Part shown: positions 31,692 to 61,820 of the stretch, in pieces
How the letters are laid out: the number at the start of each line of letters is the position of its first letter
Numbering within the stretch: the stretch's first letter is position 1
Origin: an uncultured Actinomycetes bacterium
GTDB taxonomy: Bacteria > Actinomycetota > Acidimicrobiia > Spongiisociales > DATADW01
DNA: 64,000 bases
Assembly (NCBI GenBank): GCA_963758695.1
Contig: CAVWWM010000002.1
Coordinates: 1,651-65,650 of the forward strand
Reading direction: 5' to 3'
Position numbers and translations under genes: made by a program
Notes under the pieces: model-generated
Databases searched by the model: none
What the model was told of the DNA's origin: nothing
Seen by the model: only the letters and a program-made list of their open reading frames with translations

Positions 31692-31699
31692 GACGGGTC

Positions 31700-41892: not shown

Positions 41893-41960
41893 GCTTCCCC
41901 GGTTGAAACCTCGAACCAAGCGCCTCGCCGGTTCGTATTCATAGATGCCCGATACACCGG

Positions 41961-43611: not shown

Positions 43612-43903
43612 CACCACCACGATCGCGACGACGACGACCTCGGCCCCGCCGCCGCCCGACGACGTCTTCGTCTCGATCGAGGACTTCCTGTTCTCGCCGA
43701 ACGACATCACCGTTGAAGAGGGAACCCAGGTCTGGTGGACCAATGTCGGGGACGCGGACCACACCACCACAGGCAGCTCTTGGGACTCGGGGGCCCTCGA
43801 TGCGGACGAGTCCTACGCGGTGACCTTCGAGACGCCCGGTACCTACAACTACATCTGCACGATCCATGACTTCATGACCGGGGTAGTGCGGGTCACCGAC
43901 TGA
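42989..43903 (+). CDS. secreted SLH-repeat protein with Thr/Pro linker and C-terminal cupredoxin domain (paralog)
   Basis: The first ~205 aa are identical to the upstream paralog. The diverged cupredoxin end DADHTTTGSSWDSG...YNYICTIHDFMTGVVRV supplies the His...Cys-x2-His-x3-Met copper ligands. Confidence 0.8.
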   Translation: MMWRRWLAVSVVVVLVVGGTAAVAQLPPGGTFTDDDGNEHEGFIEAIAAAGITLGCNPEGTLYCPAEPVRRDQMASFIARGFELPAAGEDFFPDDEGNTHEDNINRVAAAGITLGFDDGTFGPTLLVSRAQMASFLARAMELDPVPGDRFSDVSGEHEGNINAIAEEGVTLGCDQAGTLFCPDESVRRDQMASFLGRALGLEPTPPPPTTTIATTTTSAPPPPDDVFVSIEDFLFSPNDITVEEGTQVWWTNVGDADHTTTGSSWDSGALDADESYAVTFETPGTYNYICTIHDFMTGVVRVTD

Positions 43904-43911
43904 GGGAGTCG

Positions 43912-43940
43912 GGGGGTGACGCCGAACCGGCGTCACCCCC
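43912..43940. terminator. strong hairpin between convergent genes (bidirectional terminator candidate)
   Basis: Perfect 13-bp GC-rich stem gggggtgacgccg / cggcgtcaccccc with a 3-nt loop, 9 nt after the stop at 43903. Confidence 0.6.
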
Positions 43941-43949
43941 ATGCTCCGG

Positions 43950-44447
43950 TCAGCGAATGATTCGGAGCGTGAGCGTGCTCTCCGTCTCGCCCACGAACCT
44001 GAGGATCATCTCGCCATGGGCGGTGCGGTACCGCCTCGTTCCTCCGGTGATCGCCGCCCGGATCTGATCAGTCGTCTCGGTGAACGTCGCCAGGGTCCTC
44101 ACCGTGATCTGGCCGGCCGGCAGGTCGAGCGTGCCCAGGCAATGGAAGGTGGTTGCTTCGTCCTCACCTATGCCGACCAGTGTGCAGGTCCCGGCAAAGA
44201 CGCCAACGTTCCGGTCACCGATGAACAGATCGTCGTTGAAGACGAAATAATCACCGAGGCTGAACCCGGGATCCCCGACATCGATGTCCACGTCCTCGAT
44301 GGCGCTGATGGCGGTGACCCGCAGCACCTCGACCTTGCCGGCACCATCCGTCGACAGTGCTGACTTCGGTGAGGCGGCCGCCGCCGGAAGGCTGGCGACC
44401 ACGAGCAGGAGCGCCGCCACGGCCCCGAGTCTGAGCTTGGTTCTCAT
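43950..44447 (-). CDS. secreted hypothetical protein (beta-rich)
   Basis: GGAGAAGAGGGG RBS plus ATG at 44447. Signal peptide MRTKLRLGAVAALLLVVASLPAAAA. No family recognised with confidence. Confidence 0.55.
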   Translation of the reverse strand: MRTKLRLGAVAALLLVVASLPAAAASPKSALSTDGAGKVEVLRVTAISAIEDVDIDVGDPGFSLGDYFVFNDDLFIGDRNVGVFAGTCTLVGIGEDEATTFHCLGTLDLPAGQITVRTLATFTETTDQIRAAITGGTRRYRTAHGEMILRFVGETESTLTLRIIR

Positions 44448-44802
44448 AGAACCCCTCTTCTCCCCCCAATTGGTCGATTCAGGCTGGTGTCGTTCTCGAC
44501 AGGGGGAGCGCGGATGGAAGGCAGCGTGGCGGAGGCGAGGGCGAGTGAAAGTGGACGTCGAACGCCGCCCCCCGCCCGGCACACCTTGGGAAGTTCTACT
44601 GCTCCCGGCGCGGCCTCGCCCACAGGTGTCGTCATCGACCCTCCCCCGTGTTGCTCCCGCGCGCACCGTAGACCTGCGTCAGGAGTTTTGCACTGGCGCC
44701 TAGGTAGTTGACCGTTCCGCCGCGCCGGCCCACCAGGTCGGCCCTGCCGGACCGAGCGACCAACCGGACCCATCCCCTAGAGATGCCCAATTGCGGGTAG
44801 TG

Positions 44803-44946
44803 GTGATGTGGCGTCGGTGGTTGGGGCGAGGGGACCCTCGACGCCGACGAGTTCTATTTCGCAGCGCCTGTGACCCGCCCGGTAGTCATGGCTACATCTG
44901 CACGATCCCCGTTTTTCTGACCGCCGTAGCGCGGGTCACTGACTGA
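44803..44946 (+). pseudogene. remnant of a third SLH-cupredoxin paralog (start fused to the last ~35 codons)
   Basis: gtgatgtggcgtcggtggttgg matches the paralog start. It runs directly into ...ccctcgacgccgacgag...ctacatctgcacgatcc...gcgggtcactgactgaggg, which matches the 3' end of 42989..43903 including the stop context. Confidence 0.7.
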
Positions 44947-44965
44947 GGGTTCGAAGCACTTCGAT

Positions 44966-45397
44966 CTATGCCGGAGCCAGTGAACCCTCGGTCACCTCGG
45001 CCTTGTGTGCGGCGAAGGCGCCAAGGACTTCCTCTTTCTCCTGTGCAGGGATACCAAAGCTGTCGAGGGTGCGCCCCAGCTCGGCGGCGACCTCGTCGAA
45101 TTCCGATGGAGTGATGTGGAACTCTCGGTGAGCCTCCTCGAGCCCCAAAGGCGTGCTCCCCGGCTCGGTTGCGGTGAAATCGAAGGGTCCCCCCGCCACG
45201 TCGCAAACCCACAGGGTTCGCATGAACTTCAGCCCGGGGAGCCTCTCCAGGCTGTTGGTGTGCCATTCGCGGAGAACGGGGTTCTCGGATCCCTGGCCAA
45301 CGATCGGGTTTGCGATGAGGGCATCGCTGAACCTGTCCACCACAGCCGCGATGGCGAATACGCCACCCAGCCTCTCGTAAAGACTCGCCTCGGGCAT
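44966..45397 (-). CDS. glbN: group I truncated haemoglobin
   Basis: SLYERLGGVFAIAAVVDRFSDALIANP start typical of trHbN. EAHREFHITPSEFDEVAAEL holds the proximal His region. Confidence 0.75.
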   Translation of the reverse strand: MPEASLYERLGGVFAIAAVVDRFSDALIANPIVGQGSENPVLREWHTNSLERLPGLKFMRTLWVCDVAGGPFDFTATEPGSTPLGLEEAHREFHITPSEFDEVAAELGRTLDSFGIPAQEKEEVLGAFAAHKAEVTEGSLAPA

Positions 45398-45455
45398 AAC
45401 CGCCTCCTTGGGTCCCCCTTCAATCTGAAGGGATTTCTATTACAGAACTAGGTTA

Positions 45456-45484
45456 GTTTTACACCCTACGTAGCGTCACGTCAA
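45456..45484 (-). promoter_or_regulatory. candidate promoter of the haemoglobin gene (TTGACG-17 nt-TAAAAC) with embedded CTACGTAG palindrome
   Basis: Read on the minus strand in the most AT-rich patch of the window, about 55 nt upstream of the ATG. A leader hairpin cccttca-gat-tgaaggg and an AAGGAGG RBS follow. Confidence 0.25.
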
Positions 45485-45646
45485 CCTTGTTGGCATGCCT
45501 CGGTGTGGATCGTTGGTTCGCTCGGAGCCGCAAGATGACGCGGTTACGGCGGCGCCGCCTTTGCGGCGATGTGCGATACTTGGCGACCCCGAGGATCCGG
45601 CGCTTGAATCCGCCGCCGGCTCGCTCAGGTGCAGGGTTTGACCCTC

Positions 45647-45719
45647 GCCCCCTTAGCTCAGCTGGCAGAGCACCTCCATGGTAAGGAGGAGGTCTCCGGT
45701 TCGAATCCGGAAGGGGGCT
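45647..45719 (+). tRNA. tRNA-Thr (GGT)
   Basis: Acceptor GCCCCCT/AGGGGGC, D arm TAGCTCAGCTGGCAGAGCA, anticodon loop ATGGTAA, T arm CCGGTTCGAATCCGG. Confidence 0.9.
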
Positions 45720-45780
45720 CCGCCCGGCCGATCCCGACCGGGTTGACAAATGAAGACGGTGCGGCCACCGCACCAGGCGT

Positions 45781-45854
45781 GGCGGCGTAGCTCAGTCGGT
45801 GAGAGCGCTCGACTCATAATCGAGAGGTCGGCAGTTCGAGTCTGCCCGCCGCTA
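45781..45854 (+). tRNA. tRNA-Met (CAT), elongator type
   Basis: Acceptor GGCGGCG/CGCCGCT, anticodon stem-loop CTCGA-CTCATAA-TCGAG (no GGG/CCC initiator signature), T arm GGCAG-TTCGAGT-CTGCC. Confidence 0.85.
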
Positions 45855-45880
45855 CCGACGGGAACGAAGAAGGAGTTGTG

Positions 45881-47070
45881 ATGGGGAAGGCGAAGTTTGA
45901 GCGGACGAAGCCTCATGTGAATGTGGGGACGATGGGTCATATTGATCATGGGAAGACGACGTTGACGGCGGCGATCACGAAGGTGTTGCATGAGCGTGAT
46001 TCTTCTGTGGCGTTCACGTCTTTCGATCAGATTGATAAGGCGCCTGAGGAGCGGGAGCGGGGGATCACGATCCAGATCGCTCATGTGGAGTATGAGACCC
46101 CGAACCGTCATTACGCCCATGTGGATATGCCGGGTCATGCTGATTACATCAAGAACATGATTACGGGGGCGGCGCAGGTGGATGGGGCGATCCTGGTGGT
46201 GTCGGCGGCTGATGGTCCGATGCCTCAGACGAGGGAGCATGTGTTGTTGGCCCGTCAGGTTGGGGTGCCTTCGATCGTGGTGTTTTTGAACAAGGTGGAC
46301 ATGGTCGATGACCCTGAGCTGTTGGATTTGGTGGAGCTCGAGGTGCGGGATCTGTTGACCGAGTATGAGTTCCCGGGGGATGAGGTGCCGGTGGTGCGCG
46401 GTTCGGCCTTGCAGGCGCTTGGAGGGGGAGGGGGAGGGTCCTTCCCAGATCGTGGAGTTGATGGAGGCGGTGGATTCTTACGTGCCGGAGCCGGTGCGTG
46501 ATGTGGAGAAGCCGTTCATGATGGCGATCGAGGATGTGTTCAGTATTACGGGGCGGGGGACGGTGGTGACTGGTCGGGTGGAGCAGGGTGTGTTGAAGGT
46601 GAACGAGGAGGTGGAGATCGTCGGGATCCGCCCTACCCGCAAGACGGTGGCTACTGGGGTGGAGATGTTCCGTAAGTTGTTGGATGAGGGGCGGGCGGGG
46701 GACAACGTTGGGGTGCTGTCTGCGGGGGGTGGGTAAGGATGAGGTGGAGCGGGGTCAGGTGTTGGCTAAGCCGGGGTCGATCACTCCGCACACCAATTTC
46801 GAGGCGGCGGTGTATGTGTTGACTAAGGAGGAGGGGGGCCGGCACAACCCGTTCTTTTCTGGTTACCGCCCCCAGTTCTATTTCCGGACGACTGATGTGA
46901 CTGGTTCGGTGACGTTGCCGGAGGGGACGGAGATGGTGATGCCGGGTGACCAGACGCAGATGACGGTGGAGTTGATCGCTCCGATCGCGATGGACGACGG
47001 TTTGCGTTTCGCCATCCGCGAGGGTGGCCGCACCGTCGGTGCCGGCCGGGTCACCAAGATCCTGAAATGA
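45881..47070 (+). CDS. tuf: elongation factor Tu, split into three ORFs by two single-base insertions (~46420, ~46719)
   Basis: [36 protein letters not shown] and NKVD. The sequence continues as ...[26 protein letters not shown]...[13 protein letters not shown] in ORF 46365.. and as ...[19 protein letters not shown]...[15 protein letters not shown] in ORF 46684... Confidence 0.95.
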
Positions 47071-47087
47071 GCGGAGCTCATTTCAGG
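47061..47087 (+). terminator. hairpin spanning the tuf stop codon
   Basis: Perfect 12-bp stem cctgaaatgagc / gctcatttcagg with a 3-nt loop. A second imperfect palindrome follows at 47088-47140. No clear T-tract. Confidence 0.4.
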
Positions 47088-47167
47088 GTGGTAAGTGGTT
47101 GGTGGTATGGTGACTTATCACCTACTACCTACCACCTAGAACTGCGAACGAGCGAAGCGAGTGAGCC

Positions 47168-47329
47168 ATGCCTTCTGACAAGAGACCGCCGCTGACGTTG
47201 GCTTGTGACGTTTGCAAGCGTCGCAACTACGTCACCACCAAGAACAAGACCAACACCAGGGACCGGCTCGGATTGCAGAAGTACTGCAGGTGGTGCCGCG
47301 TCCACACCCTGCACCGAGAAACCCGTTGA
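47168..47329 (+). CDS. rpmG: 50S ribosomal protein L33 (Cys-containing zinc-ribbon form)
   Basis: Manual translation [53 protein letters not shown]-stop. Too short for the ORF track. Confidence 0.9.
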
Positions 47330-47362
47330 TCCCAGGGGCGGGGCAGGCCGACCAGTGGTAGC

Positions 47363-48331
47363 TTGCCGAGCCGACCCTGCGGGTGGAGTGAGCAGGTCTG
47401 CATCGGGACGGGGCTTCGCCAACAAGCGGAGAGACCCCGTCCCGATCGCGTCGGGTCGGCGTGGTCGCTGACGACGGTCCGCCATTCGGACCGCCTCGAG
47501 GGTTGGCGGATCGGACCGGCCCCGCTCACACTCACTCCCGACAGGGTGTCCAACCTGGTGGCGGCCACAGGCGACGACCCCGAGCGCTGGACGGCGGCAG
47601 CACCGCCTTCCTTCGGCGCGGTGACGTTGTTCGCAGTGGCCAAGGACCTTCTGGCAGCACCCGAGCTTGTCGGGCGCGGGGTGATCCACTCCGAGCAGAC
47701 ATTCGAGTGGCACCGGCCGTTCGTCATCGGGAGCGAGGTCGAGGTGGAAGGTGTCGTCGGGAGGGTCCGTTCGAGGGGTCCGGCCACGTTTGTCGGGCTC
47801 GATGTCACCACCCGCGATGTGTCCGGCCCGGTGCAGACCTCGGCGTCGAGCTTCGTCGTGATCGAAGCCGATCCCGCGGGGTCGGCTGACACCGGAAGCG
47901 AGCCTGGACCCGAGGAACGCGCCATCGACGAGCGACCCACGCCGCGACCGCTCCCCGCCGTCGGGACGCAGCTTCCACCGCTGGTCAAGTCGGCCAGCCG
48001 TGGTGATCTCCTCCGCTATGCGGCCGCCACCGGTGACTGGAACCCCATCCACTGGGACCGCGCCGCCGCGGTGTCCGCCGGACTGCCCGGGATCGTGGCG
48101 CACGGTCTGCTGATGGCGGCGTGGGTGGTCCAGGCCGCCGCCCGCCATGCCCTTGGGGACATGCCGCTCCGTCAGGCGCGCCTTCGCTTCAGGTCACCGC
48201 TGCGACCGGCCGAGCCGGCGTTGGTTGAGGGCGAGGTCCACGAGGAGGGGTCGCTCCGTCTGCGGGTGGTTTCCGGCGGCGAGGAGAGGGTCACGGCTAC
48301 GGTTGTGCTCGAGCCGTCGAGCGGTGGGTAA
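47363..48331 (+). CDS. double hot-dog MaoC-like (3R)-hydroxyacyl dehydratase (HadA-like + HadB-like halves fused); start uncertain
   Basis: The C-terminal half carries the hydratase-2 motif YAAATGDWNPIHWDRAAAVSAG. The N-terminal half is a non-catalytic hot-dog (...VIHSEQTFEWHRPF...). Its position between rpmG and secE mirrors the mycobacterial had locus. Confidence 0.75.
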   Translation: MPSRPCGWSEQVCIGTGLRQQAERPRPDRVGSAWSLTTVRHSDRLEGWRIGPAPLTLTPDRVSNLVAATGDDPERWTAAAPPSFGAVTLFAVAKDLLAAPELVGRGVIHSEQTFEWHRPFVIGSEVEVEGVVGRVRSRGPATFVGLDVTTRDVSGPVQTSASSFVVIEADPAGSADTGSEPGPEERAIDERPTPRPLPAVGTQLPPLVKSASRGDLLRYAAATGDWNPIHWDRAAAVSAGLPGIVAHGLLMAAWVVQAAARHALGDMPLRQARLRFRSPLRPAEPALVEGEVHEEGSLRLRVVSGGEERVTATVVLEPSSGG

Positions 48332-48335
48332 CCCC

Positions 48336-48903
48336 ATGCAAGAGCTGAGGGTCGAATCGAGCGTCGATCTTCTGGTGGATCGAGCCCGACAGGGGGACCG
48401 AAACGCCTTTGGCGACCTGGTTCGGCTCCACCAGCACGAGGTGTTCACCTTGGCGGTGAGATTGGTTGCCGATAGGACCGTTGCGGCGGATGTGGCGCAG
48501 GATGCCTTCATCCGCGCCTGGCGGGCACTCCCCAAATTCCGCGGCGACGCGGCGTTCGCCACCTGGCTGCACCGGATCACGGTCAACGCCGCATGGAGCC
48601 AGAGGCGCCGAGCGGCGGCCCGCCCCGTTTCCCAACTCGACGAGGCGCTTGCCGTCCCCGATACCGACCCGCTCCGCCAACCCGAGCGCGTCGGCGAAGT
48701 GGCCGATCTACGCCAGGCCCTGGGAGACGCCATTGGCGCGCTCCCCATTGGGATGAGGGCGGTGGTGGTGCTCAAGGACATTTACGGGTGGAGCCACGAC
48801 GACGTGGCCCGCGGCACTTGGGATCTCCGAGACCGCGGCCAAGGTGAGGCTCCATCGGGCGCACCTCCGGCTCAGAGAGATGCTCGACGGGCGACACCCA
48901 TGA
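48336..48903 (+). CDS. ECF (sigma-70 family) sigma factor, one frame change near 48808
   Basis: Region 2 is HQHEVFTLAVRLV...DVAQDAFIRAWRAL. Region 4 MRAVVVLKDIYGWSHDDVA continues as AALGISETAAKVRLHRAHLRLREMLDGRHP-stop only after a 1-nt shift. Confidence 0.8.
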
Positions 48904-49270
48904 CGGCGCGCACCCATCTCGCTCGACGTGCGCTGGCGACCACATCGCTTCCCGGCGCCGCCACCGCCAAGGAGCATGTGGAGGGCTGTCTCGCCTGTCA
49001 GGCCTCTGCCGCCCACGATCGGCGGTTGCAGCGCCGGCTGGCGCTCCTCCGCCACGAACTGATCCCGGCCCCGGCCGGTTTGGTCACTCTGGTCCTGGCT
49101 CGGATGGAGGCCGCACCCGGTGTGGCGTCGACACGCGGCCCGATAATCGCCGGAGCATCGGTGTTGGCCGCAGCGGCGGCAGCGGCCGCCATGGTGGCGG
49201 CGCGGTCGACGGGGTGTGGCCGCTCCCGGATGAGGCAGCGGGGCATGGGTGTACACTGCGTCCGGCCCAT
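48900..49270 (+). CDS. anti-sigma factor (zf-HC2 type), 3' end uncertain
   Basis: ATG overlaps the sigma stop (ATGA). HVEGCLACQ gives H-x3-C-x2-C, followed by a hydrophobic Ala-rich segment. The ORF has no stop before tRNA-Trp, so a further frame error is likely. Confidence 0.45.
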
Positions 49271-49334
49271 CGGTAGACTCCGCCCAGGCGGGCTCACCGC
49301 CCTTTCCCCGCACGATCGAGCCGAGGGGAACCGG

Positions 49335-49408
49335 AGGGGTGTAGCTCGAATTGGCAGAGCGCCGGTCTCCAAAACCGGAGGTTGCGGGTTCGAGTCCCGC
49401 CGCCCCTG
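49335..49408 (+). tRNA. tRNA-Trp (CCA)
   Basis: Acceptor AGGGGTG/CGCCCCT, anticodon stem-loop CCGGT-CTCCAAA-ACCGG, T arm GCGGG-TTCGAGT-CCCGC. Confidence 0.9.
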
Positions 49409-49432
49409 CTCCGCAAGGAAGCGATACGTGAG

Positions 49433-49744
49433 ATGAACCGAGAGATGAGGCGCCTCGTTGAACGCGAGGAGCGACGACAGAAGCAGACGCAGCGGGCGCG
49501 CCCCAAGCGTTCCGCCGGCAAGCCGGCTGAGCAGAAGCCGAGCCTGTGGCATCGGCTTGGCATCTTCTTCCGCGAGGTTCGCACCGAGCTCCGGAGGGTG
49601 CAGTGGCCGACGCGAGATCAGATGATCGCCTTCACCTCGGTGACCCTCATCACGACCACGGCGGTGACGCTCATCGTCTTCGCCTTCGATGTCGTGCTCA
49701 AGGAGGGCATCTTGTGGCTGCTCCAGGGCGCCGGGCAAGGGTGA
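49433..49744 (+). CDS. secE: preprotein translocase subunit SecE
   Basis: Basic N-terminus, then FFREVRTELRRVQWPTRDQMIAFTSVTLITTTAVTLIVFAFD. Conserved position after tRNA-Trp. Confidence 0.9.
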   Translation: MNREMRRLVEREERRQKQTQRARPKRSAGKPAEQKPSLWHRLGIFFREVRTELRRVQWPTRDQMIAFTSVTLITTTAVTLIVFAFDVVLKEGILWLLQGAGQG

Positions 49745-49748
49745 AGCG

Positions 49749-50357
49749 ATGACCGACGCTGTTGACATCATCGAAGAGACCGAGGTCGTCGAAGAGGAAG
49801 AGCCGTACACCAGTCCCTACGACCTCGAAGGCGACTGGTACGTCATCCATTCCTATTCGGGCTACGAGAACAAGGTCAAGGCCAACCTCGAGACCCGCAT
49901 TCGGTCGATGCATATGGAGGACCGGATCTTCGAGGTGGTCATCCCACTCGAGCCGGTGGTCGAATTCAAGGGTGGCCGGAAGGTCACCGTCCAGAAGAAG
50001 GTTTTTCCCGGCTACATCCTGGTCCGGATGGTCCTCGACGACGACTCCTGGTATGCGGTGCGTAACACGCCGGGGGTCACCGGGTTCGTTGGGGGTGGGA
50101 GCAAACCATCACCGTTGTCAAGGCGCGAGGTGGAGCGCTTCCTCGGGGTAGAGAAGAAGGAAATCAAGAAGGAACCCCGCTACAAGCCGGAGTGGGAGGT
50201 CGGGGAGACCGTCCGGGTCGTAACCGGGCCGTTCGCCGACTTCAACGGCGTGATCGAGAGCATCAATGTCGACCAATCCAAGGTCGTGGTGCTGGTCAAC
50301 ATCTTCGGGCGCGACACCCCGGTGGAGCTCGGGTTCGAGGACATCACCAAGCAGTAA
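49749..50357 (+). CDS. nusG: transcription termination/antitermination factor NusG
   Basis: [23 protein letters not shown] and the KOW region [22 protein letters not shown]. Confidence 0.95.
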
Positions 50358-50388
50358 GACTTGGTACTCGGTACTTAGAAGGAATCGC

Positions 50389-50820
50389 ATGGGACGGAAG
50401 AGACTCGTCACGACATTGAAACTGCAGATTCCCGCCGGGCAGGCCAGCCCGGCGCCTCCGGTGGGCACCGCCCTCGGGCCGCACGGGGTCAACATCATGG
50501 ACTTCGTCCGCGCCTACAACGAGGCAACCGCCAGCCAGACGGGGACCATCGTCCCGGTCGAGGTTTCGATCTATGAGGACCGCAGCTTCACATTCGTCAC
50601 CAAGACGCCGCCCGCCGCCGTCCTGCTGCGCCAGGCCGCCCAGGTGCCGAAGGGTTCCTCGACCCCCCGCACCGAGAAGGTGGGACGGGTGACCAAGGCG
50701 CAGATCCGCCAGATCGCAGAGACGAAGATGCCCGATCTCAATGCCAACGACATAGACGCCGCGATGAAGATCGTCGAGGGGACGGCGCGGTCGATGGGTA
50801 TAGAGGTACTCAGTACCTAG
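50389..50820 (+). CDS. rplK: 50S ribosomal protein L11
   Basis: [30 protein letters not shown]...[11 protein letters not shown]. Confidence 0.95.
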
Positions 50821-50887
50821 TACTTAGACAAGAGCGGTGGGAGAGCGGTGCCTGAGCTGCTCGTCTGGACCACGAAAGGAATGGCTG

Positions 50888-51607
50888 ATGCCGAGACACG
50901 GCAAGAAGTATCTGGAAGCGATGCGTCGCTTCGACCACAACGCCTCTTACACCGCCGATGAGGCCGTAGACCTCGTCAAGGTGCTCGCTCCGGCCAGCTT
51001 CGACGAGACGGTCGAGGTCGCATTCCGGCTCGGGATCGACCCGCGGCGCGCCGACCAGATGGTCAGGGGCACTGTGAGCCTTCCGCATGGCACCGGGAAG
51101 GCGGTCCGTGTCGCCGTGTTCGCCCAGGCCGACAAGGCGCGCGAGGCCGAGGCCGCTGGCGCAGATCTGGTTGGTGGCCCGGAGTTGGTGGCTCGGATCC
51201 AGGACGGGGAGCAGCCACTCGACTTCGACATCGCCGTCGCCACCCCCGACCTGATGTCAGAGGTGGGGAAGTTGGGCCGTGTCCTCGGTCCCCGGGGTCT
51301 GATGCCAAACCCCAAGGCCGGGACGGTCACCGCCGACGTGGGCAAGGCCGTGGAAGAGTTCAAGGCCGGGCGCATCGAGTACCGCAACGACCGCTATGGG
51401 AACGTCCACGCCCCCATCGGGAAGGTGTCCTTTGAGCGTGACCAGCTGATCGGCAACCTGGCAGCGCTCACCTCCGAAATTGTCCGGACCCGGCCCGCTG
51501 CCGCAAAGGGACGGTACATCCGGCACGTCAGCGTTTCGTCGACGATGGGGCCCGGCGTTGCCGTGGACGCCGCCAAGCTGGACGACCTGACCGCCCTCGC
51601 CCACTGA
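50888..51607 (+). CDS. rplA: 50S ribosomal protein L1
   Basis: MPRHGKKY..., [50 protein letters not shown]. Confidence 0.95.
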
Positions 51608-52051
51608 GAAAGGCCACAGGGGAGCCTCGCCTCTGGAGCGGCTGCTCAGCGGTGAGCGGCGGGGCGGCCGCCAGGGTGCCACCCAGAGAACCGATCCTCT
51701 GCGGTGGGGCAGGGTAGGGGCTGCTCTCCACCGAGGTTCTCGTACGCCGTGCCTCTCCCGGGACGGTAGCGGTCAGGTGAGGACGTCCCGCCCGGCAAGG
51801 CCCCCCTGTCGTGTCTAGTGTCGCGCCACCAAGGTCCCTTTGTCTAGCGCTTATTCGGGCGCGAAAATCGGTCGCAATTCACCTGTTACCATCGTCCAGC
51901 AACAAGGCCGGAGACCGCGGGCGCATCGCCTAAGGGGTGGCAAGTCACCCACCTGCGCAGGTCACCTTTGAAACCGGGTCGTTACCTCATTGGCGCGACC
52001 TCCTCGAGGGTCCTGGTCTCCGACCGGGACCTTTCTCTTTGAGGAGGACGC
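51608..52051 (+). promoter_or_regulatory. long rplJ 5' leader region (possible L10-L12 autoregulatory leader)
   Basis: 444-nt non-coding gap between rplA and rplJ with several local hairpins and GAGGAGG 6 nt before the ATG. No covariance-model check was possible. Confidence 0.3.
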
Positions 52052-52387
52052 ATGCCACGACCTGAAAAGGTCCAGGCAGTTGAAGACATAAGAAGCCGGA
52101 TCGAATCGGCGCAAGCGACATTCTTGACCGAGTACCGCGGTCTCAATGTCGCTCTACAGCAGAAACTCCGGCGAAGCCTGCGCGCCACCGGGACGGAATA
52201 CAAGATCGTCAAGATGACGCTTGCCCGCCTCGCTGCCGGGGAGTTGGGTATCGAGGGTGCCGAGGAATGGCTCACCGGCCCAACCGCCCTCGCTTTCGCC
52301 GGGGATGACCCGGTGGAGACGGCCAAGGCGCTGCGCGACTTCGCTCGGGAACACGAGCAGCTCGTGGTCAAGGCCGGATTCCTCGGC
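52052..52387 (+). pseudogene. rplJ: 50S ribosomal protein L10, 3'-truncated at the block junction
   Basis: MPRPEKVQAVEDIRSRIESAQATFLTEYRGLNVALQQKLRRSL...REHEQLVVKAGFLG is canonical L10. From codon 113 the frame reads the antisense of the neighbouring gene, and no rplL follows. Confidence 0.85.
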
Positions 52388-53377
52388 GCATTCGACCATG
52401 ATGTCCATGTACCAATCGAACCGTTCCACGCTATACAGGTAGGGGTTGGGTCCGCCGGGGTTCTTGCGAATCGTTTCCAGCCACGGGATGTTTTCCACTG
52501 AAAGGTGACTGGTGAGCCGGAGCGCGGCCTTCTGCTTCTTCGCGAAGTCGTTGACGGCCAGCTCCAGAGCGGCAAGCGATGGACGGTCAGGCGCCGTGAG
52601 GCTCAGGATCATGGCCGTATGCTGCCGGCCCCGGTCCTTCACCGGGAAGAAGAGCGCAATCGATCCGGGCGTGTGTCCCGGAGTGAGCGCCATCGTCACG
52701 GTCGTATCGCCCAGCGTCAACTGTTGTCCGTGCTTCACCTCCATGTCACGACGGGGGAGCGCCCTGCTCCGCCGCTGCCGCTCCGAGAGGCCTTCGATGA
52801 GATTCCAGTCTTCAGTGGCCATCAGGACCTTCGCGTTGTATTCTGCTGCAGGGTACTGGGCGCCGCCAAAATGATCGAAATGACCGTGCTGGACGATGAC
52901 GTACTTGATCTGGGTCGGGTCGAGACCGAGCTTCTCCAGTGAAGGCACGATCACCTTCACGGCGTCTGCCTCGGAGTTCAGCGTGTCGACAATGATGATT
53001 CCATCGCTCGTGTTAATCGCCCAGCCGCCGACGGTGTTGAATCCGAAGAAATAGAGATTGTCGAAAAGCTTCGTCGGCTCGATGACGGCCTGTGGCTCCG
53101 GTGGCAAGCCCTGGAGCTGCCTGATCACCGCCGGCCTTCGGGGACCCGTATTGGTGCACATCACCTTGGTTTCCGCCACCAGGTCGGGCTTCGCCTGTTT
53201 CGCGATCGCCATGGCGGCCGCGATGTGCTTCTGCGCCTCGGTGGATTCCGCCATCTGCTTTTCAGTAGGCTCGTCGGGATCCTGCGCGGGTCCGCCCCGC
53301 TGGGCAGCGAGCGGTGACTGCAATGCCCCTGTCATGCAGGCTGCGACAGCGAACCCGGCCAACAGTCTCTTCAGCAT
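52388..53377 (-). CDS. secreted metallo-beta-lactamase-fold hydrolase, extreme 3' end cut at the junction
   Basis: Signal peptide MLKRLLAGFAVAACMTGALQSPLAAQ, VIVQHGHFDHFGG (HxHxDH) and LTPGHTPGS. Sensible sequence ends ...SVERFDWYMDIMVECAE at about 52388. The rest of ORF 52154..53377 is antisense rplJ. Confidence 0.8.
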
Positions 53378-53460
53378 GAAACCTCCTTGTGGACTCCACG
53401 TCCGTCACGGAACTCGAACGACACGGCGGCCCACCGCCTCCACGGGCTCGTCACCTTCAT

Positions 53461-54015
53461 TCATCGGCCCCGCGCTTCTGACGTCAACGTGGCTGGGTAC
53501 GGGCCTGCGACGTCCCGCGCCTGGTTCGCGTTGATCAACGATTGACACGGCCCAGGCGCCGGTACTCGAGCGCACACGACGAGCGTGACGCGGTAGTCCT
53601 CTGGAGCGATCGTCGTTCCCTCACGGGGCTGTGGCTTCAGATCGACGAGTCGAACGACCAGGCCCTCGTATTCGGCATCCCGTCCGACGCGTTCGCTCGT
53701 GTGCAGCATGCGAGTGGCGGAGGCTGCGGGAGGTTTCTCCAGCATAGCTCCACGACAGCATCGCCAGCCCACACGCACTGACGTCCTGACGGGGCATCGC
53801 GAATCCTCGGTCACCCCTTCGAAGCGCACCAGCAGGTTCTCGTCAGCCAGGCGGGACGCCTCGTTGGCTTTCAACTCGAACGGCTCGCCGCGCTTCGCCG
53901 CTCCTGCCGGCTGACTGTTCTGTCCCAGCAGTGACGTCGCGAGGGCGATGACCGCGAGGGCGGTTGCCGGCAGACTCCTGATGAGCCCGCCTCGCTGAAT
54001 TAATTGGGAAACCAT
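53461..54015 (-). CDS. small secreted protein with DSRCP...CVWAG motif, two compensating frame changes (~53790, ~53745); 3' end uncertain
   Basis: Likely start MVSQLIQRGGLIRSLPATALAVIALATSLLG. FELKANEASRLADENLLVRFEGVTEDSRCP is followed out of frame by RQCVWAGDAVVEL, then back in frame LEKPPAASATRMLHTSERVGRDAEYEGLVVRLVDLKPQP. Confidence 0.45.
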   Translation of the reverse strand: MVSQLIQRGGLIRSLPATALAVIALATSLLGQNSQPAGAAKRGEPFELKANEASRLADENLLVRFEGVTEDSRCPVRTSVRVGWRCCRGAMLEKPPAASATRMLHTSERVGRDAEYEGLVVRLVDLKPQPREGTTIAPEDYRVTLVVCARVPAPGPCQSLINANQARDVAGPYPATLTSEARGR

Positions 54016-54133
54016 CAATGCCTTCCCTGCGTTCCTCAGTGTATACTCCCGGCGCTTGCCGGCGTCCGTGATTTCGATTCCGGTAAGTTCGAGCTCCCCA
54101 CCTGACCATTCGACCTTTCCTCCAGAAGGTGTC

Positions 54134-57100
54134 ATGAGAGCATCCATTCGCACCCTGACGTTGAGCGTTCTGTTGTTCGCGTTCGCGGTTCCGGTTCGCG
54201 GTCAACAGCCGTCGGCCGGCGCTGGCGCATCACCGGCAGAGCTGACCGCTGTCGCCGGAGGCATGGTGACCGCCTTCGACGCAGACGGAGTTCCAACCTT
54301 CATATGGGGAAGCGGACAGTCCGCTCCGGCGCTCGGCGCTCCGGAGGCGGCGGCACGCTGGCATCTGGGGCGGTTCGCTCGCGCATTCAGGACGTCCCCG
54401 GCCGAGCTTGCGTCGGCGCGCCTCGTCCAGTTGCAAGGGTGCCGTCCGGCGGCGTGATCGCACATTTCCGTCAGCAGCTCGGAGGTCTCGACATCTACGG
54501 CAGCGACGTCAAGGTGCTCATCGGCGACGACTCGCGCCTCGTCGCCATCACGGGTCGGCCTGTACGCCGTGGACGGCCGCGGTCCGGGACTCGAGTTCCA
54601 GGTTTCCTCCGTGCAGGCGCTCGCCAATGCGCTGTCGCACGTGTCGGGCGGCAGGGTGCAGACCGCGAGCATCGTCGGCATATCGCCGTCCGTCACGGAT
54701 ATCCAGAGTGGAGCGGGCACAGTCCAGTGGTTTCAACTTGCGGATCCCGCCGGCAGGGTGCTCGCCGACCCGGCCCCGGTCAAGCAGATCCTCTTTCCCG
54801 CTGGCGGTGCACTCGTTCCAGCGCACGAAGTCCAGTTCTATGCAGGCGCCGGCGACTCGAACGACTCGCTTGCCTTCCGCTACATTGTTGCGGCCAGCGA
54901 CGGGCGCGTGTTGGCGCGCCGGAACCTGACGGCGAGCGAGGGGCCGCAGGAAAGCGCGGGCGGATCCGAAAGGGCCCAGCCTGCGGAACCTCCTGCTGAA
55001 TTCCTCTACCGTGTATGGGCGGATGGGACAGGCGACCTGCGTCCGCAAGACGGGCCGCAGACCGACGTCACACCCCACCCGGCCGGCGTGCCGGACGACA
55101 CGGAGCCGCCATTCGTCCTGCCGAACCTGGTGACGATGGGCGGCTTCAACCACCCGCGAAGAGGAAGGGCTCCGTCTGAGCGCGGACGCTGAGAGGGAAG
55201 CCGACGGCGCGACGGCGGAGGCCGGCCTCGGGAGGCTCGGGAGAGTGGCGGACCCCTGGCTGCCGGCTGATGCGACGGAGACGTCAGGGAACAACGCGGA
55301 CGCGTACGTGGATCACTCGGCGCCGGACGGTGTCTCGGTCGGCGATTTCCGGGCCACGACCACGTCCCACGGACGTTCGACCGGACGTACGACACGGCGG
55401 CGCCTCCGCTCGCCAGCGTCGATCAATCGCAGGCCGCCATTACTCAGACCTTCTACACGGTCAACTGGCTGCACGATTACTGGTACGACTCCGGATTCAA
55501 CGAAGCCGCCGGCAACGCGCAGAAGGACAACTACGGCAGGGGCGGCATCGGCGGCGATGACATGCGCGTCGAGGTCCAGGACGACTACTTCGGCGGATCG
55601 CGCAACAACGCGAACATGTCCACGCCGTCCGACGGCGTGCGGCCGCGCATGCAGATGTTCGTGTTCTTGGGGCGCGAAACCCGCACGCTCAGGCTCATGC
55701 CGGGCGGTGACCTCGAGACGGGCAGCGCGTCGTTCGGCGCGGCCACCTTCGACATCACCGCCCCGGTCGTCCTGGCCAACGACGGCATGGGTCCGTCGCC
55801 AACCGATGCGTGCGAACCGCTTGTGGGCGTCGCCGGGCGAATTGTCCTCGTCGATCGCGGGACCTGCGCGTTCATTGAAGGCCGTTAACGTCGAGGCCGC
55901 GGGCGGGGTCGGCATGATCGTCGCGAATAATGTGGCCGGCCCGCCGCCAGGGATGGCGCGAGCCCATCCCCGTCACCATTGGGGCGCTCTCCATCACCCA
56001 GGCGGACGGAGCAGCCCTGAAAGCGGCGCTTGCGCTGGGGGCCGTCAGTGCGCGCATGCTCCGGCAGCCGGGGCTGGAGCGCGACTCGGCGCTCGACAAC
56101 CAGATCATCGCGCACGAGTGGGGTCATTACCTGCACCACCGCCTGGCTGATTGCGGGTTGCAGCAGTGCGGCGCGCTCAGCGAGGGCTGGGGAGACTTTC
56201 TCGCGCTGCACATGATGTCGCGCTGGGTGACAACCTCGACGGACGTACTCCGGCTCGGTGTACGCCAGCCGGATTTTCGGCGACTCCGCGTATTACGGCA
56301 TCCGGCGCTCCCCCTATTCCGTCGACTTCGCGAAGAACGGCTTGACGTTCCGGCACATCTCCAATGGAGAGCCGCTGCCCCCGGGACCTTCCCGGCGGCC
56401 CGAACTCGGAGGTGCACAACGCCGGAGAGGTCTGGACGTCGATGCTCTGGGAAGGCTATGTCGCGCTCCAGAAGGCGAACCCGTTCCCAAGGCGTTTCGA
56501 AGAGTCCGCCGCCGCATGTCCAACTACGTGGTCGCCGGCCTGCAGATGACGCCGCGCGACGCCACCTACACGGAGCAGCGGGACGCGATCCTCGCCGTAG
56601 CCGCGGCCGGCCGGAACAGGCGCGTTGACCTGGGCGTGCTCGCCAACGCGTTCGCCAGACGGGGGCCGGAAGCTGCGCCATTGCCCCGCCGCGGGCTCAC
56701 TGATTTCGCCGGCGTCACCGAGAGCTATACGAGGTCCGCCCCGCATCGAAATCGGCGCCATCAGCCTCGAGGTGGATCGGAGGTCGTGCGACGGCGACGA
56801 CTACCTCGACGCGGGCGAGCAGGGGTGGGTGGCCATCACGGTGATGAATGGCAGCGCCACGCCAATGCTGGATACGGTCGTCACGGTCAACTCGGCGACG
56901 CCCGGCATCTTCTTCCCTCGCGGCATTTCCGCGCGCATTCGCCGGATCGGCCGTTCAGCAGCGCCCGGGCGCGCATCAGGATCGCGCTCGACCGCACCGT
57001 CTCGGGCCTCGGCTCGCTCGATCTCGAGGTCAACGTGTCCAACGCAGAGGCCTGCGAGGCGGTTGTATCCCGGTCCTTCACGGAGAGGATCAACGCTGAC

Positions 57101-57695
57101 GATGTCGCCAATGCGTCGAGGATCGACGAAGTGGAGACGATGATCACGCCGTGGACCTCGCTGGAACCGATGCGAATGAGGTCTGGTCGCGGGTGGAGGC
57201 GACGCCGTCCAACCGCGCGTGGCTCGGCGCCGATCTCTCGGGGATCACGGACACGGCGCTGCAGTCGCCAGCGCTGCTCGCGAGCGCGACCGATCCGCTG
57301 GTGATCACGTTCGAACATCGCCACAGTTTTGAAGCGTTCGAAGACGACATTCTTCGATGGCGGGGTGATCGAGATCCCTCAACAACGGGGCCGCGTGGGA
57401 GGACATCACCTACGTCGACGACCCTGGCTACGGCGGCACGCTGTTCGAGGAGGCGGGCAACCCACTGGGCGGCCGCGACGCCTTCGTGGCTCAAAATGCC
57501 GGTGGCCGGCCCGTGACACGGTCACACTCGACCTCGGGCGCCATTACCGGGCCGGACCGTGCGCATCCGTTTCCGGATAGGCGCGGACGAAGCCGCGGGC
57601 GATGTCGGTTGGGAGATTGACAACATCACCGTTCGGGGACGACCAACACGCCATTCCCGATGCTGGTCGAAGACAGAAGTATGTGTAGACCGTAG
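54134..57695 (+). pseudogene. M36 (fungalysin-like) zinc metallopeptidase with PA-domain insert, at least a dozen frame changes
   Basis: Signal peptide MRASIRTLTLSVLLFAFAVPVRGQ. Catalytic motifs AHEWGHYLHHRL (HExxH), SEGWGDFLAL and NSEVHNAGEVWTSMLWE. PA-like segment RIVLVDRGTCAFIEG...AGGVGMIVANN. Fragments are spread over ORFs 54056.., 54304.., 54569.., 55245.., 55562.., 55930.., 56258.., 56364.., 56625.., 57151.., 57329.., 57559... Confidence 0.7.
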
Positions 57696-57739
57696 AGCGT
57701 CGCAGAGGAGGAGAGACGCAAAGTTACTCGAGTCGCCAT

Positions 57740-57808
57740 CTTCCGGCTGAAGCCGGAAGCCACACCGGGCACGAATGTCTGGCTGTGGCTTCCGGCTTTA
57801 GCCGGAAG
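57740..57808. repeat. pair of inverted GC-rich hairpin repeats (REP-like) between convergent genes
   Basis: cttccggctgaagccggaagccaca (57740-57764) and tgtggcttccggctttagccggaag (57784-57808). Each unit is itself a hairpin CTTCCGGC-loop-GCCGGAAG. Confidence 0.85.
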
Positions 57809-57827
57809 ATGACTGTAGCGGTGCGCT

Positions 57828-59234
57828 TTATTTCGTGAGCACTCGGATCGTGCCGTCGCCCTTGTTCAGCAGAAAGATCTGATTGTCCGGGCCCAGTATT
57901 CATCCGCAGATCCGCACGCGTCGCGGGCATCTTGCCCTGCGCCATGTTCTTGGCCTTGATCACCTCGAGGAAGGTCTTCGCCGTGCCGCCCTCGTTGAGC
58001 AGGATGCGGCGGATGGCATCCTGGCCGCCGCTCGGCAGGTTGTCCGCGTTCACGTAGAAGAGTTCGCCGCTGGGCATGTCGGCAAAGATCAGCAGGTTCG
58101 CGAGCTGCGGGACCTGGTTGCCGCGATAGACCACCAGGCCGCCGGCGGCGGACTGGGATTGCAGGAGCGGGTCGAGCTGTCCCCATTCGGCGATCGGATA
58201 GGTCACCTTCGGGTCGCCGCGCTGGTTTTCGAGCGCCACGCCTTGGCGCCCCCCGTATCTGTAGCTGCCCTCCCAGACGTTCCACCCGAGGTTGGCGCCC
58301 GGTGTGACGCGGCTGATTTCCTCGACAGTGCCCTGGCCGATGTCGGACATGAACATGGCGCCGTTGCGCGAGTCCCAGGCGAATCGCTGCGGATTGCGCA
58401 CGCCGTAGGCGTAAATCTCGGGGAGCGCGCCCGGCGTGTTTCGCATCGGGTTGTCGGCGGGGATGCCGTATTTCTTGTTCGCGCTGTTGTTGCCCAGCGG
58501 GTCGATGCGGAAGATCTTCCCGAACGCGATGCCCAGGTTCTGCGCCATGTTGAGCGGGTCGCCGCCGCTGCCGCCGTCCGCGACGCCCATGTACAGCAGG
58601 CCGAAGTCCGGAGAGTTCGGCTCGGCGAGCGGGTTGAAGGCGAGCATGCCGCCGTTGTGGTTCTGGAACGGGTCCCGCCATCGCATGAGCTCACGCGGCG
58701 CGCCGCCGTCGTAGGTCGCCGCGCCGGGGGTCTTGGCCGTCCACTCGAGCAGCACGGCATGGTGCGTGTCCATTCCGCCTGGTGCGGGATGGAAGTCCGC
58801 CGGCGGCGTCATGTTCGTGGTGTCGGTGTAGGTGTAGAACTTCCCGAAGCCCCGGCTGCCTTGCTGGTTGAACTGCGGGTGAACCGCGAAGCTCTGGAAG
58901 CCGCGCTCGCGGCCCATCGACTGGACCGGCACTCCCGCCGCGTTGATATCCAGGTACTTCGTGACCGTCTTGCCGTCCTCAGTGACCCGATAGAGCTGGC
59001 CGCGCATGTCGTTGACGAACACGCGGCGCGTCCCCGGCTCGGTGACGAGGTTCATCATGCGCGCCGCCACGCCGTCGATATCCGGCAGCGAGGCGAACTC
59101 CTGGTAGTTCACGCGGATGACGCCTCGGTCGCGGGAATGGCCGTCGGGAACGGGTCGGTGGGTGCCTGCGCGAGCACACCCAGGACCGGCAGCGACGAGA
59201 GTGCGATGACACGAATCACGTGTGTCATGGCCAT
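57828..59234 (-). CDS. PQQ-dependent sugar (glucose/sorbosone) dehydrogenase-type beta-propeller, two frame changes (~59125, ~57890)
   Basis: ERGFQSFAVHPQF, NHNGGMLAFNP, YAYGVRNPQRFAWD and DIGQGTVEEI. The signal peptide MAMTHVIRVIALSSLPVLGVLAQA and the true C-terminus DNQIFLLNKGDGTIRVLTK-stop (57828) are in other frames than the main ORF 57724..59685. Confidence 0.75.
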
Positions 59235-59348
59235 CTAACCTATCCGAATGCGCCATTCTTGTGTAGGGGACGGGAATGGGTTTCCATTTTCGTGCTCCAA
59301 GGCCTCTGTGTCTCGTGTCCCTGTGGCCCGTGGAACTGAAAAAACGCT

Positions 59349-60267
59349 TCAGCCACGGGCCTCCAGTGCCGCAGGTGTGAAGAAGTCGTCCGCGTTCCGG
59401 TGCTGGAATCCGAGCCGGCGCGCGAAACCTGGATCCTGCGCGCCTGCGCCGACGTAGATGCACTGCGAGACGTCGAGAAGATAGCGCTGAATGAACACGA
59501 CGCCCAGGCCGGGCAGCGGCTTGCGGCACCAGCAGGTCGGCGGCCCGGCGCCATGTGGACAGTACTGAACGTCGATGGACAGTCCCAACATCTCCTGCAT
59601 GCGCGCGAGCACGGCATCGACGTTGCCGGCGGACATCGTTCCTTCGGCGACGCGCGGTTGCCAGGACAGCCCCAGCACGCGCCAACCGGCGGCCTGATAG
59701 CCACGCAGCACTTCTCCGCGTTCGGCACGCACCTCGACATCCTCGACAGACGCCGGCGTGCGTGAGCCGGATCGGCTGCGATACAGAACGTCGTCACACC
59801 ACACGATGAGCGCGCGGTTCACAAAGGAAGGGTTGTGCCGGCGCTCGAATGGCATGACGTCAATCCGCGAGAACATCACGGAGGGATCCGGGGGCTCCAG
59901 ATCACGTTGATAGCGGAACTGCACTGCCGGACCGAATGACGCCGCGTCGAGCCGGGCGTTCCCCAACAGCGTCCGCCACGCGACGTTCACCTGTGCATCC
60001 TCGACGCTGGTCGAAAGCCAGACACACCGGACTGGAAGGCCGCGTTGCCCGGCGGCCTGAATCACGGCCGCCCTCGACTTGCGGGAGACATACGTATTGT
60101 CGAGGACGATGCGCGAACGTCCGGAGGCGAGTGCGCGATCGAGAGCCGGAAGCAGCCCGCGCAACGATCCGCCGACCTCGTCGCGGTTCAACCGCTGGTA
60201 GCCCTGCGCGACGAACGATCCGGCCACGGTGCTCTTCGGCGCCGGGCAGGCCAATAATCAGAACCAC
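59349..60267 (-). CDS. P-loop kinase (AAA_33/polynucleotide-kinase-like) fused to HAD-type phosphatase (GmhB/PNKP-like), frame change in the P-loop (~60236)
   Basis: VVLIIGLPGA then, after a 1-nt shift, KSTVAGSFVAQGYQRLNRDE. The C-terminal CPHGAGPPTCWCRKPLPG resembles the Zn-binding motif of histidinol-phosphatase-type HAD enzymes. Confidence 0.6.
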
Positions 60268-61176
60268 TTTACCATCCGCGTGCTCGGGCGCCGGACGATC
60301 GCGGCGCGCCTCGCGGAACCGCAGCGCCCGCCCGGCGGGAATCGCTCGTCCAGGCGCGCGCGATCGTCGGCGGTCAACGCGATTCCGCAGGCACGAGCCA
60401 CTGACCGCGCCGTTTCCACACGGGTGGGTCCGGAACGGGCAGCGCCAGGTCCGACAGGTCGGTCAGCCAGGCCAGAGCGATCTCGAACGGAGTGGCGCCG
60501 TGGCGCGCCGCCACATCCAGGAGCGCGGCATCACGACCAGTGCGATGCCGGCGCTGCGGCCCGCCGAGCGGCCGGTACCCAAGAAGCTGAATGCCGTGGG
60601 CGAGGCAGTATTCGGCCACGCCGCTCAAGATGTTCGTCCTGCCAGATGCTGAGCTCGACCTGTACCGAGGCAATCTCCGTGATGCGTCTGGCTTCCTCGA
60701 TCTGACCAACGTTCACATTGCAGAGACTGATCCCTGGATGAGCCCGTCGCGCTTCAACGAGGTCAGGGCGCGGACGCTGGTCGCCAGCGGCGTTCGCGGG
60801 TCGGGCGCGTGAAGCTGGTACAGGCGGATGCGCTCGACGCCGAGGGCGCGCCGGCGGCCCCGCACGCCGCGATGAGATGACGTGCCCGTCCATCCGCGAC
60901 CCAGTTGATGCGGCCGGGTGAGGCCGCCTTAGGTGGCCACCAGATGCGCGAGCGGTCGCCGTTCCACGCCGCCAGCGCTCGCGCGATCAACCGCTCGTTG
61001 TGGCCGGTACCGGTGTCGTCCCAGCAGTACACGTTCGCGGTGTCGAGAAAGTTGACGCCGGCATCGAATGCGGCATGCAGCACGGCGATGGCCCGATCCT
61101 CGTCGCGATCGCGATCGGTCGAGAGACGCATGCACCCCGCGCCGATAACCGGTGCACCCTCCGTCGTCCACGGCAT
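60258..61176 (-). pseudogene. aldo/keto reductase, at least three frame changes; may be fused in frame to the downstream kinase-phosphatase
   Basis: VIGAGCMRLS...AFDAGVNFLDTANVYC...GHNERLIARAL (catalytic Asp/Tyr region), GISLCNVNVGQIEEA, AEYCLAHGIQLLGYRPLGG and GIALTADDRARLDERFP, spread over ORFs 60763.., 60531.. and 60374... Confidence 0.65.
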
Positions 61177-61223
61177 GCCGCAAGTGTATCAAGGTGCGGG
61201 CCGCCCTGACCCTCGGCCGTTGT

Positions 61224-61372
61224 CTTCCGGCTGAAGCCGGAAGCCACATACCCAACTCCCAACGCCCAACGTGATGCTTGCCCCAACTCCCAAACAGTTG
61301 GGAATTGGCCCTTCCGTCGTGTTGGGAGTTGGAGTGAGAGTTGAGAGTGTGGCTTCCGCCTTCAGGCGGAAG
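61224..61372. repeat. about 150-bp imperfect palindrome bounded by the same hairpin repeat units (MITE/REP-like)
   Basis: Left cttccggctgaagccggaagccaca (61224-61248) and right tgtggcttccgccttcaggcggaag (61348-61372). The inner arms cccaactcccaac / gttgggagttgg are also inverted. Confidence 0.8.
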
Positions 61373-61421
61373 GCGGCAACTCAGCGGGCCCCGGGGCGGA
61401 GCTTGCCTAGCTGACGGGCTC

Positions 61422-61820
61422 ATGCCTTACAATCCGCGTCATGGCATCAGGTTCATCATCCCCGTCGCCGCCGCATGGGTCACCACGATTGCCCTGATCG
61501 CGCAGGGTAATCCGGAGGCGGCCAACTCAAAAACCCGGTCGCGTCGACGCCCGACTCAATCGCGGCGGGCAAGCAGCTTACACGAAAAACTGCGCCGCAT
61601 GTCATGGCATCAACGCAACAGGAGGGACGGGCAACGACATCGCGCCGCCGTCGCCGGATCTGACCGACGCCGAGTGGCTGCGCGGCGGGAGCGAGGCGAG
61701 ATCTTCTACGTGATCAAGAACGGGATCCCTCCCGATCTGAACATGCCCGCGTGGGGCGACCGCATGAAGGATCCCGATATCTGGAACGTCGTGAATTTCG
61801 TGGCGAGCCTGAAGAAGTAG
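61422..61820 (+). CDS. class I c-type cytochrome, three frame changes (~61528, ~61575, ~61688)
   Basis: N-terminal membrane/signal segment GIRFIIPVAAAWVTTIALIA. LKNPVASTPDSIAAGKQL, YTKNCAACHGINATGG (CxxCH) and EIFYVIKNGIPPDLNMPAWGDRM lie in three frames. Confidence 0.7.
   Translation: MPYNPRHGIRFIIPVAAAWVTTIALIAQGNPEAANSKTRSRRRPTQSRRASSLHEKLRRMSWHQRNRRDGQRHRAAVAGSDRRRVAARRERGEIFYVIKNGIPPDLNMPAWGDRMKDPDIWNVVNFVASLKK

Follow-up and report, generated by a model that had tools for sequence, protein, structure and literature searches.

The 64,000-nt stretch of DNA analysed here (the window) almost certainly owes a join near its right end to assembly or concatenation rather than to biology: Acidimicrobiia and Acidobacteriota DNA abut directly at positions 52387/52388, where the gene for ribosomal protein uL10 (rplJ) and a convergent gene for a metallo-beta-lactamase (MBL)-fold hydrolase are both cut. 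A block boundary or chimeric join inside rplJ had been proposed in a preliminary description of this DNA, and that reading is borne out by homology end points, taxonomy, composition, codon usage, repeats and the intact genes of relatives. The features on which the argument depends are as follows.

1..52388, no strand: left block, Acidimicrobiia-like (Actinomycetota) chromosome segment (L001 synteny, L10 matches, tetranucleotides)
52052..52387, plus strand: rplJ (ribosomal protein uL10) 5' fragment, codons 1–112 (Pfam, NCBIfam NF000955, P0001 match)
52389..52501, plus strand: spurious tail of the rplJ open reading frame (ORF), antisense of the MBL gene, 37 residues past codon 112 (ORF list, translation, NF000955)
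52154..52387, minus strand: spurious tail of the MBL ORF, antisense of rplJ (ORF list; homologues stop 9–10 residues past ...ECA)
52388..53377, minus strand: MBL-fold (subclass B3-like) secreted hydrolase gene, about residues 1–330 (Pfam Lactamase_B, homologues)
52389..64000, no strand: right block, Acidobacteriota chromosome segment (L003 and L004 matches)
57735..57811, no strand: REP-like hairpin pair (CTTCCGGCTGAAGCCGGAAG) (repeat search; motif also in L003 and L004)
61219..61372, no strand: second REP-like hairpin pair of the same family (repeat search; motif also in L003 and L004)

Two convergent genes break off at the same point

The ORF that begins with rplJ (52052–52501, plus strand, 149 aa) reads ...REHEQLVVKAGFLG to codon 112 (nt 52385–52387) and then continues as AFDHDVHVPIEPFH. 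Its first part carries the N-terminal domain of L10, scoring above the cut-off with both profiles used: Pfam PF00466 (Ribosomal_L10) covers residues 1–98 with 90.2 bits (cut-off 22.8), and the L10 equivalog NF000955 covers residues 5–112 with 107 bits (cut-off 85). The latter match corresponds to profile positions 2–109 of 168 and does not extend past residue 112 of the ORF; the product is not a complete-length uL10, the C-terminal L7/L12-dimer helix being missing. A search with residues 1–112 returned relatives of 184–192 aa that are 96%, 91% and 88% identical, and the 96% match, P0001, is complete at 192 aa. The window fragment is without a stop codon and without the C-terminal 72–80 residues. 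That rplJ is canonical L10 as far as codon 112 (nt 52387), as originally described, is thus upheld by NF000955 and the complete 192-aa relative alike. The L10 genes of several relatives are also frameshifted.

The MBL ORF (53377–52154, minus strand, 407 aa) shows the complementary structure: it reads ...SVERFDWYMDIMVECAE and then runs on as antisense of rplJ. Full-length relatives are 338–350 aa long and terminate in ...ECARARVAALGR or ...ECAEARVAAREHR, each followed by a stop codon, so that comparison with them leaves the window gene short of its final 9–10 codons and stop. Residues 1–179 are 100% identical to P0142, a fragment, and over the C-terminal 145 residues identity to the corresponding product of locus L003 is 98.6%. 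When the C-terminal 146 aa were used as a query for same-strain copies running past the join, 12 matches were returned, none of them near-identical. The gene is complete in L004 (350 aa) and in two loci from JGI metagenomes, L005 and L006, and no L10 gene lies nearby in any MBL locus.

The MBL product matches Lactamase_B (PF00753) with E = 8e-17 and 62 bits (cut-off 22.7). With the B3 equivalog NF033105 it reaches 106 bits, below the curated cut-off of 240, and with all named B3 families it falls far under the NCBIfam cut-offs. We therefore do not take beta-lactamase activity to be implied, and on its domain match the protein is assigned to the MBL-fold superfamily only. Like the subclass B3 MBL-like hydrolases of Acidobacteriota, it has a Lactamase_B domain, an HGHFDH zinc motif and an N-terminal signal-like segment, and it is 80–89% identical to full-length homologues; unlike them, it loses its C-terminus at the join.

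Because each side breaks off mid-gene, the two ORFs run on as meaningless antisense. The ORF list and translations agree with the preliminary description that each becomes antisense of the other past the join, to 52501 and 52154, respectively, with no stop at the join itself.

The same description had remarked on missing rplL, rpoB and rpoC genes, a remark that needs one correction. A tblastn search of the window with a relative's L12 gave no match to rplL, and no second copy of rplJ is present in the window, whereas loci L001 and L002 carry rplL ∼0.5 kb 3' of rplJ. Past the join point, L001 completes rplJ and has rplL next, after which a convergent M1 aminopeptidase gene follows. Since the closest relatives have this M1 aminopeptidase gene after rplL, the absence of rpoBC is not anomalous in itself.

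Position and base-level structure of the join

Blastn homology to L001 on the left stops at 52388, and homology to L003 on the right starts at 52387; these end points leave a 2-nt overlap in which the join must lie. When the window is compared base by base with L001 and with the reverse complement of L003, this overlap proves to be CG at 52387–52388, shared by both sources, with no inserted bases between the blocks. The window tracks L001 to ...CCTCGGCG, ending at 52388, while the reverse complement of contig_215188 (L003) opens with CGCATTCGACC at 52387. The range of 52370–52400 given earlier contains the join, now placed at 52387/52388.

No linker, adapter or Ns occur at the join, and neither a direct nor an inverted repeat flanking 52388, nor a target duplication, was found. 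Among the genes called up to 10 kb to each side in the syntenic relatives, Pfam matches revealed no integrase, transposase or other mobile-element gene, no IS end was found near the join, and an Rfam scan reported four tRNAs only, with no match at the join. A 28-mer spanning the junction had no match in JGI metagenome contigs, and exact-protein look-ups for both chimeric ORFs yielded no record in the collections searched, which are incomplete. L10 and the MBL gene occur together in none of loci L001–L006: inspection of related genomes for an rplJ–MBL adjacency, one of the checks proposed at the outset, instead found relatives of either side with the gene complete and in its usual context.

The 8-mer CCTCGGCG (window 52381–52388) is common to the rplJ sense strand and to the antisense of an L004-type MBL 3' end (…TGCGCCGAGGCG…, L004:10870–10880). 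If the MBL ending of the window strain is L004-type, this 8-mer is a possible microhomology at the join.

The left block is Acidimicrobiia-like

The left block ends with genes for tRNA-Thr and tRNA-Met, tuf, a sigma/anti-sigma pair, tRNA-Trp, secE, nusG, rplK, rplA and the 5' part of rplJ. Its last 7.5 kb (window 44889–52388) are collinear with L001 (ENA ERZ25039591 contig_124574) at 91% DNA identity, the named L10 matches are Acidimicrobiia or Actinomycetota metagenome-assembled genomes (MAGs), and the tetranucleotide signature is homogeneous over 1–52388. The block shares tRNA-Trp, secE, nusG, rplK, rplA and the start of rplJ, in the usual order, with the canonical Actinomycetota neighbourhood secE-nusG-rplK-rplA-rplJ-rplL, but unlike that neighbourhood it ends rplJ at codon 112 and has no rplL. 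The relatives L001 and L002 differ from the window in having complete rplJ and rplL, and then the convergent M1 peptidase gene instead of rpoBC.

Two further features of this block were noted. A direct repeat, 99% identical between 41956–42255 and 42977–43276 (spacing 1021 nt), sits in tandem SLH/cupredoxin-type genes (41968–42981 and 42989–43903); L001 aligns to both copies, and either a genuine tandem duplication or one introduced in assembly could account for the repeat. In tuf, nusG and rplK (45881–46438, 49908–50820), G-ending codons are strongly preferred, with GGG at 75–100% of GGG+GGC, and tuf is also enriched in ACG and GCG; such a preference is unusual for highly expressed genes.

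The second relative, L002 (ENA ERZ25039531 contig_1407, 201 kb), carries complete rplJ followed by rplL, and has a peculiarity of its own. Its homology to the window and to L001 begins abruptly at window 51760, and at L002:9400–10010 its tetranucleotide signature switches ∼290 nt upstream of rplJ: positions 1–10000 are unlike the Acidimicrobiia signature and positions 10001–20555 are similar to it. Upstream of rplJ, LysR, NMO, AMP-binding, FMO and DUF3280 genes replace nusG-rplK-rplA. The switch point is intergenic and the neighbouring gene starts are intact. The switch may reflect a genuine rearrangement or island, or L002 may be another contig that is chimeric beside rplJ.

The right block belongs to an Acidobacteriota lineage

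To the right of the join, the window encodes the MBL protein, a hypothetical protein, a frameshifted M36 peptidase that carries a PA domain, a dehydrogenase of the GSDH type, an aldo-keto reductase/AAA_33 protein, a cytochrome c and a large conserved protein. Such a collection of secreted hydrolases and redox enzymes is ordinary for Acidobacteriota. Window 52387–63342 aligns over 11 kb, on the reverse strand, with L003 (ENA ERZ25039469 contig_215188, 49,651 bp) at 94.8% identity. The identity is a mosaic: ∼99% at 52.4–54.5 kb, ∼90% at 55–57.5 kb, in the region of the M36 peptidase, and 96–98% beyond. The pattern suggests strain recombination or a mixed-strain consensus.

The named MBL matches are Acidobacteria MAGs. 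Among species genomes (one genome per GTDB species), the sole match is L004, from the uncultured Acidobacteriota bacterium MFD02840.bin.2.39, whose MBL protein is 80% identical at the amino acid level; window 61403–64000 further matches L004 (15236–18213) with 86–88% DNA identity. Best-hit taxonomy, put forward earlier as a check on the two sides, accordingly returned Acidimicrobiia-like genes on the left and Acidobacteriota genes on the right. In L004, as in the window, the MBL gene has the cluster for the cytochrome c and the large conserved protein as its neighbour, but the relative order of the two differs; synteny within the lineage therefore breaks at the MBL 3' end in the comparison with L004.

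A hairpin family, CTTCCGSCTNNAGSCGGAAG, also separates the two blocks. It has four copies in the window, all to the right of the join, where none is expected by chance, in agreement with the preliminary count of four downstream and none upstream. The motif occurs four times in L003 and seven times in L004 (in 21 kb of MAG MFD02840.bin.2.39), and has no copies in L001, in L002 or in the left 52 kb of the window. The palindromic element CTTCCGGCTGAAGCCGGAAGCCACA is arranged as inverted pairs in intergenic regions. From its distribution, we regard the family as a REP-like element of the Acidobacteriota lineage of the right block.

Oligonucleotide composition and codon usage step at the join

G+C content is about 0.65–0.66 on both sides, and neither G+C nor GC skew separates them. 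Tetranucleotide distances, computed between 5.8-kb chunks, do so. Within the left block, the 36 distances have a mean of 0.0227 and a maximum of 0.0304, and the two right-side chunks are 0.0196 apart; across the join, the mean is 0.0374 and the minimum 0.0333, so that 18/18 cross-join distances exceed 36/36 within-left distances. Non-homologous segments of the relatives classify each side correctly by the same measure. Segments of L004 lie 1.8–2.4 (×10⁻²) from the right block as compared with 3.1–4.7 from the left block, while downstream segments of L001 and L002 lie 1.8–3.1 (×10⁻²) from the left block as compared with 3.8–3.9 from the right block. A sliding 5-kb tetranucleotide change-point scan has a broad maximum at 52–54.5 kb. 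Its second peak, at 14–15 kb, was considered as another block boundary and rejected; a frameshifted S8 protease gene lies there beside a strand switch.

For codon usage, the comparison was restricted to frameshift-free segments, a version with all right segments being contaminated by internal stops. GGG/(GGG+GGC) falls from 0.49 in the left segments to 0.20 in the right ones (p = 3e-6), and ACG/ACC, GCG/GCC and GAA/GAG also differ between the sides (p about 0.003–0.005). Tetranucleotide and codon usage, whose comparison across the join had been recommended, therefore both step there.

Frameshifts indicate an error-prone consensus

Many genes are broken on both sides of the join. On the left, tuf is spread over three frames (45881–47070), and the sigma and anti-sigma genes (48336–49276) and the S8 protease gene (11600–14700) are likewise disrupted; on the right, the M36 peptidase gene (54000–57300) and the GSDH and aldo-keto reductase/AAA_33 genes (57828–61176) are affected. 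Frameshifts in essential genes on the left, together with those in several genes on the right, indicate an error-prone long-read consensus rather than pseudogenes, and the other apparently broken genes of the window should be treated as sequencing errors. The contigs of the relatives bear Flye-style contig_N names, and Microflora Danica, the project from which L004 comes, used Nanopore long reads assembled with Flye --meta --nano-hq and one round of Medaka (PMC12313526). The window itself is presumably the product of an assembly of the same Nanopore/metaFlye type.

Discussion

Two properties expected of an inter-genome chimera are present. Homology to L001 and to L003 ends at a shared point, past which relatives continue normally (L001, and L004–L006 with their complete MBL genes), and the sides differ in taxonomy and in genome signature. 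The hallmarks of horizontal transfer are not: mobile-element features were not found at the junction, and the junction did not recur in independent sequences, that is, in the JGI contigs and L001–L006, collections that are incomplete. A uL10 without its L7/L12-binding C-terminus, in a genome with no rplL, would not be viable as a sole copy, given its place in the ribosomal stalk. This non-viability, the lack of mobile-element hallmarks and the difference in phylum between the sides together make a biological junction very unlikely. Sequence processing has instead almost certainly set 52.4 kb of Acidimicrobiia DNA, on the left, end to end with 11.6 kb of Acidobacteriota DNA, on the right.

Two routes to such an artefact were weighed. 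In the one that we prefer, two contig termini would have been butted together without a spacer, either because a multi-contig bin or assembly was written as one string or through a tip-to-tip join. One observation bears on this choice: contig_215188, which comes from another sample and is ∼99% identical to the window beside the join, stops at precisely the base matching window 52387 (L003:10992). As this independent contig ends at the same base, the beginning of the right block is a contig terminus that recurs between assemblies. In a chimeric read, fragment ends are brought together at random, and a break at that base is not expected; butted contig ends are for this reason slightly favoured. 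It is plausible that the shared terminus arose from a fork in the assembly graph, given that the mosaic identity may reflect strain mixing and that the MBL 3' end is a synteny break point, although its nature, whether strain fork, repeat boundary or physical end of DNA, is a matter of guesswork.

The other route is a misjoin within a single metaFlye-type contig by way of one chimeric Nanopore read in a region of low coverage. We consider it a serious alternative, with somewhat less than an even chance of being correct, and on balance judge butted contig ends the more likely of the two. The many indel frameshifts on both sides suggest a low-coverage long-read consensus, and the relatives are themselves Flye contigs. 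The signature switch in L002, ∼290 nt from the start of rplJ, indicates that switches within contigs may occur in such data; it is, however, intergenic and next to an intact gene start, and may be a real rearrangement. The 8-nt microhomology (CCTCGGCG), if the MBL 3' end is L004-like, could also have assisted a misjoin. Nevertheless, the random fragment ends of a chimeric read leave the terminus shared with contig_215188 unexplained, and no adapter remnant is present at the join. Against an artefact by either route stands the seamlessness of the join: adapter, linker and Ns are all lacking, which is unusual in scaffolds as well as in unsplit nanopore chimeras.

There remains a slender chance that window 52387 marks a point where DNA of the Acidobacteriota population reproducibly ends, or a boundary of structural variation within it, or that the junction is a real molecule. 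Were the boundary real, the MBL 3' end could be a site of site-specific insertion or rearrangement, or could border a multi-copy or strain-variable element that takes the place of the last 9–10 MBL codons.

A recent transfer between phyla, of at least 11.6 kb of Acidobacteriota DNA into the rplJ gene of an Acidimicrobiia chromosome or in the reverse direction, is very improbable. The seamless join with its short overlap is what illegitimate recombination might produce, and the right block reaches the end of the window, leaving room beyond it for a distal rplJ remnant. Such a transfer would, however, destroy an essential single-copy rplJ and detach rplL, and the inserted MBL gene would itself be truncated. 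The join is accompanied by neither an integrase nor a transposase gene, and by no IS end or target duplication, and the junction is present in no related locus and no JGI contig. The right side, moreover, is ∼99% identical beside the join to a 49.6-kb Acidobacteriota contig and retains the REP elements of the Acidobacteriota lineage along with its codon usage and tetranucleotide signature. An inversion or other rearrangement within one genome, with break points in rplJ and the MBL gene, would account for the convergent orientation of the truncated genes, yet it is more improbable still, because best hits and synteny with relatives place the two sides in different phyla, and because their oligonucleotide signatures, codon signatures and repeats are unlike.

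Read as an artefact of sequence processing, the join represents no new biological system; it belongs to a familiar class of metagenome chimera or bin contamination. Like other inter-genome chimeric contigs and contaminated metagenome bins, the window juxtaposes two phyla abruptly, with composition and taxonomy stepping at one point, and, as in known metagenome chimeras, the join cuts genes that are uninterrupted in relatives. Unlike the usual cases, its break can be placed within 2 nt and coincides with the contig terminus of an independent assembly. Chimeras and contamination of this kind are the problem that GUNC-type tools detect (GUNC is cited in PMC12313526).

The significance of the finding is one of quality control only. 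The record mixes Actinomycetota and Acidobacteriota DNA, and the join creates two pseudo-ORFs, a 149-aa 'L10' and a 407-aa 'MBL', and makes the genome appear to be without rplL. The sequence should be split at 52387/52388; annotation of the 64-kb stretch as one organism, or phylogenetic or metabolic inference made on that basis, would be wrong.
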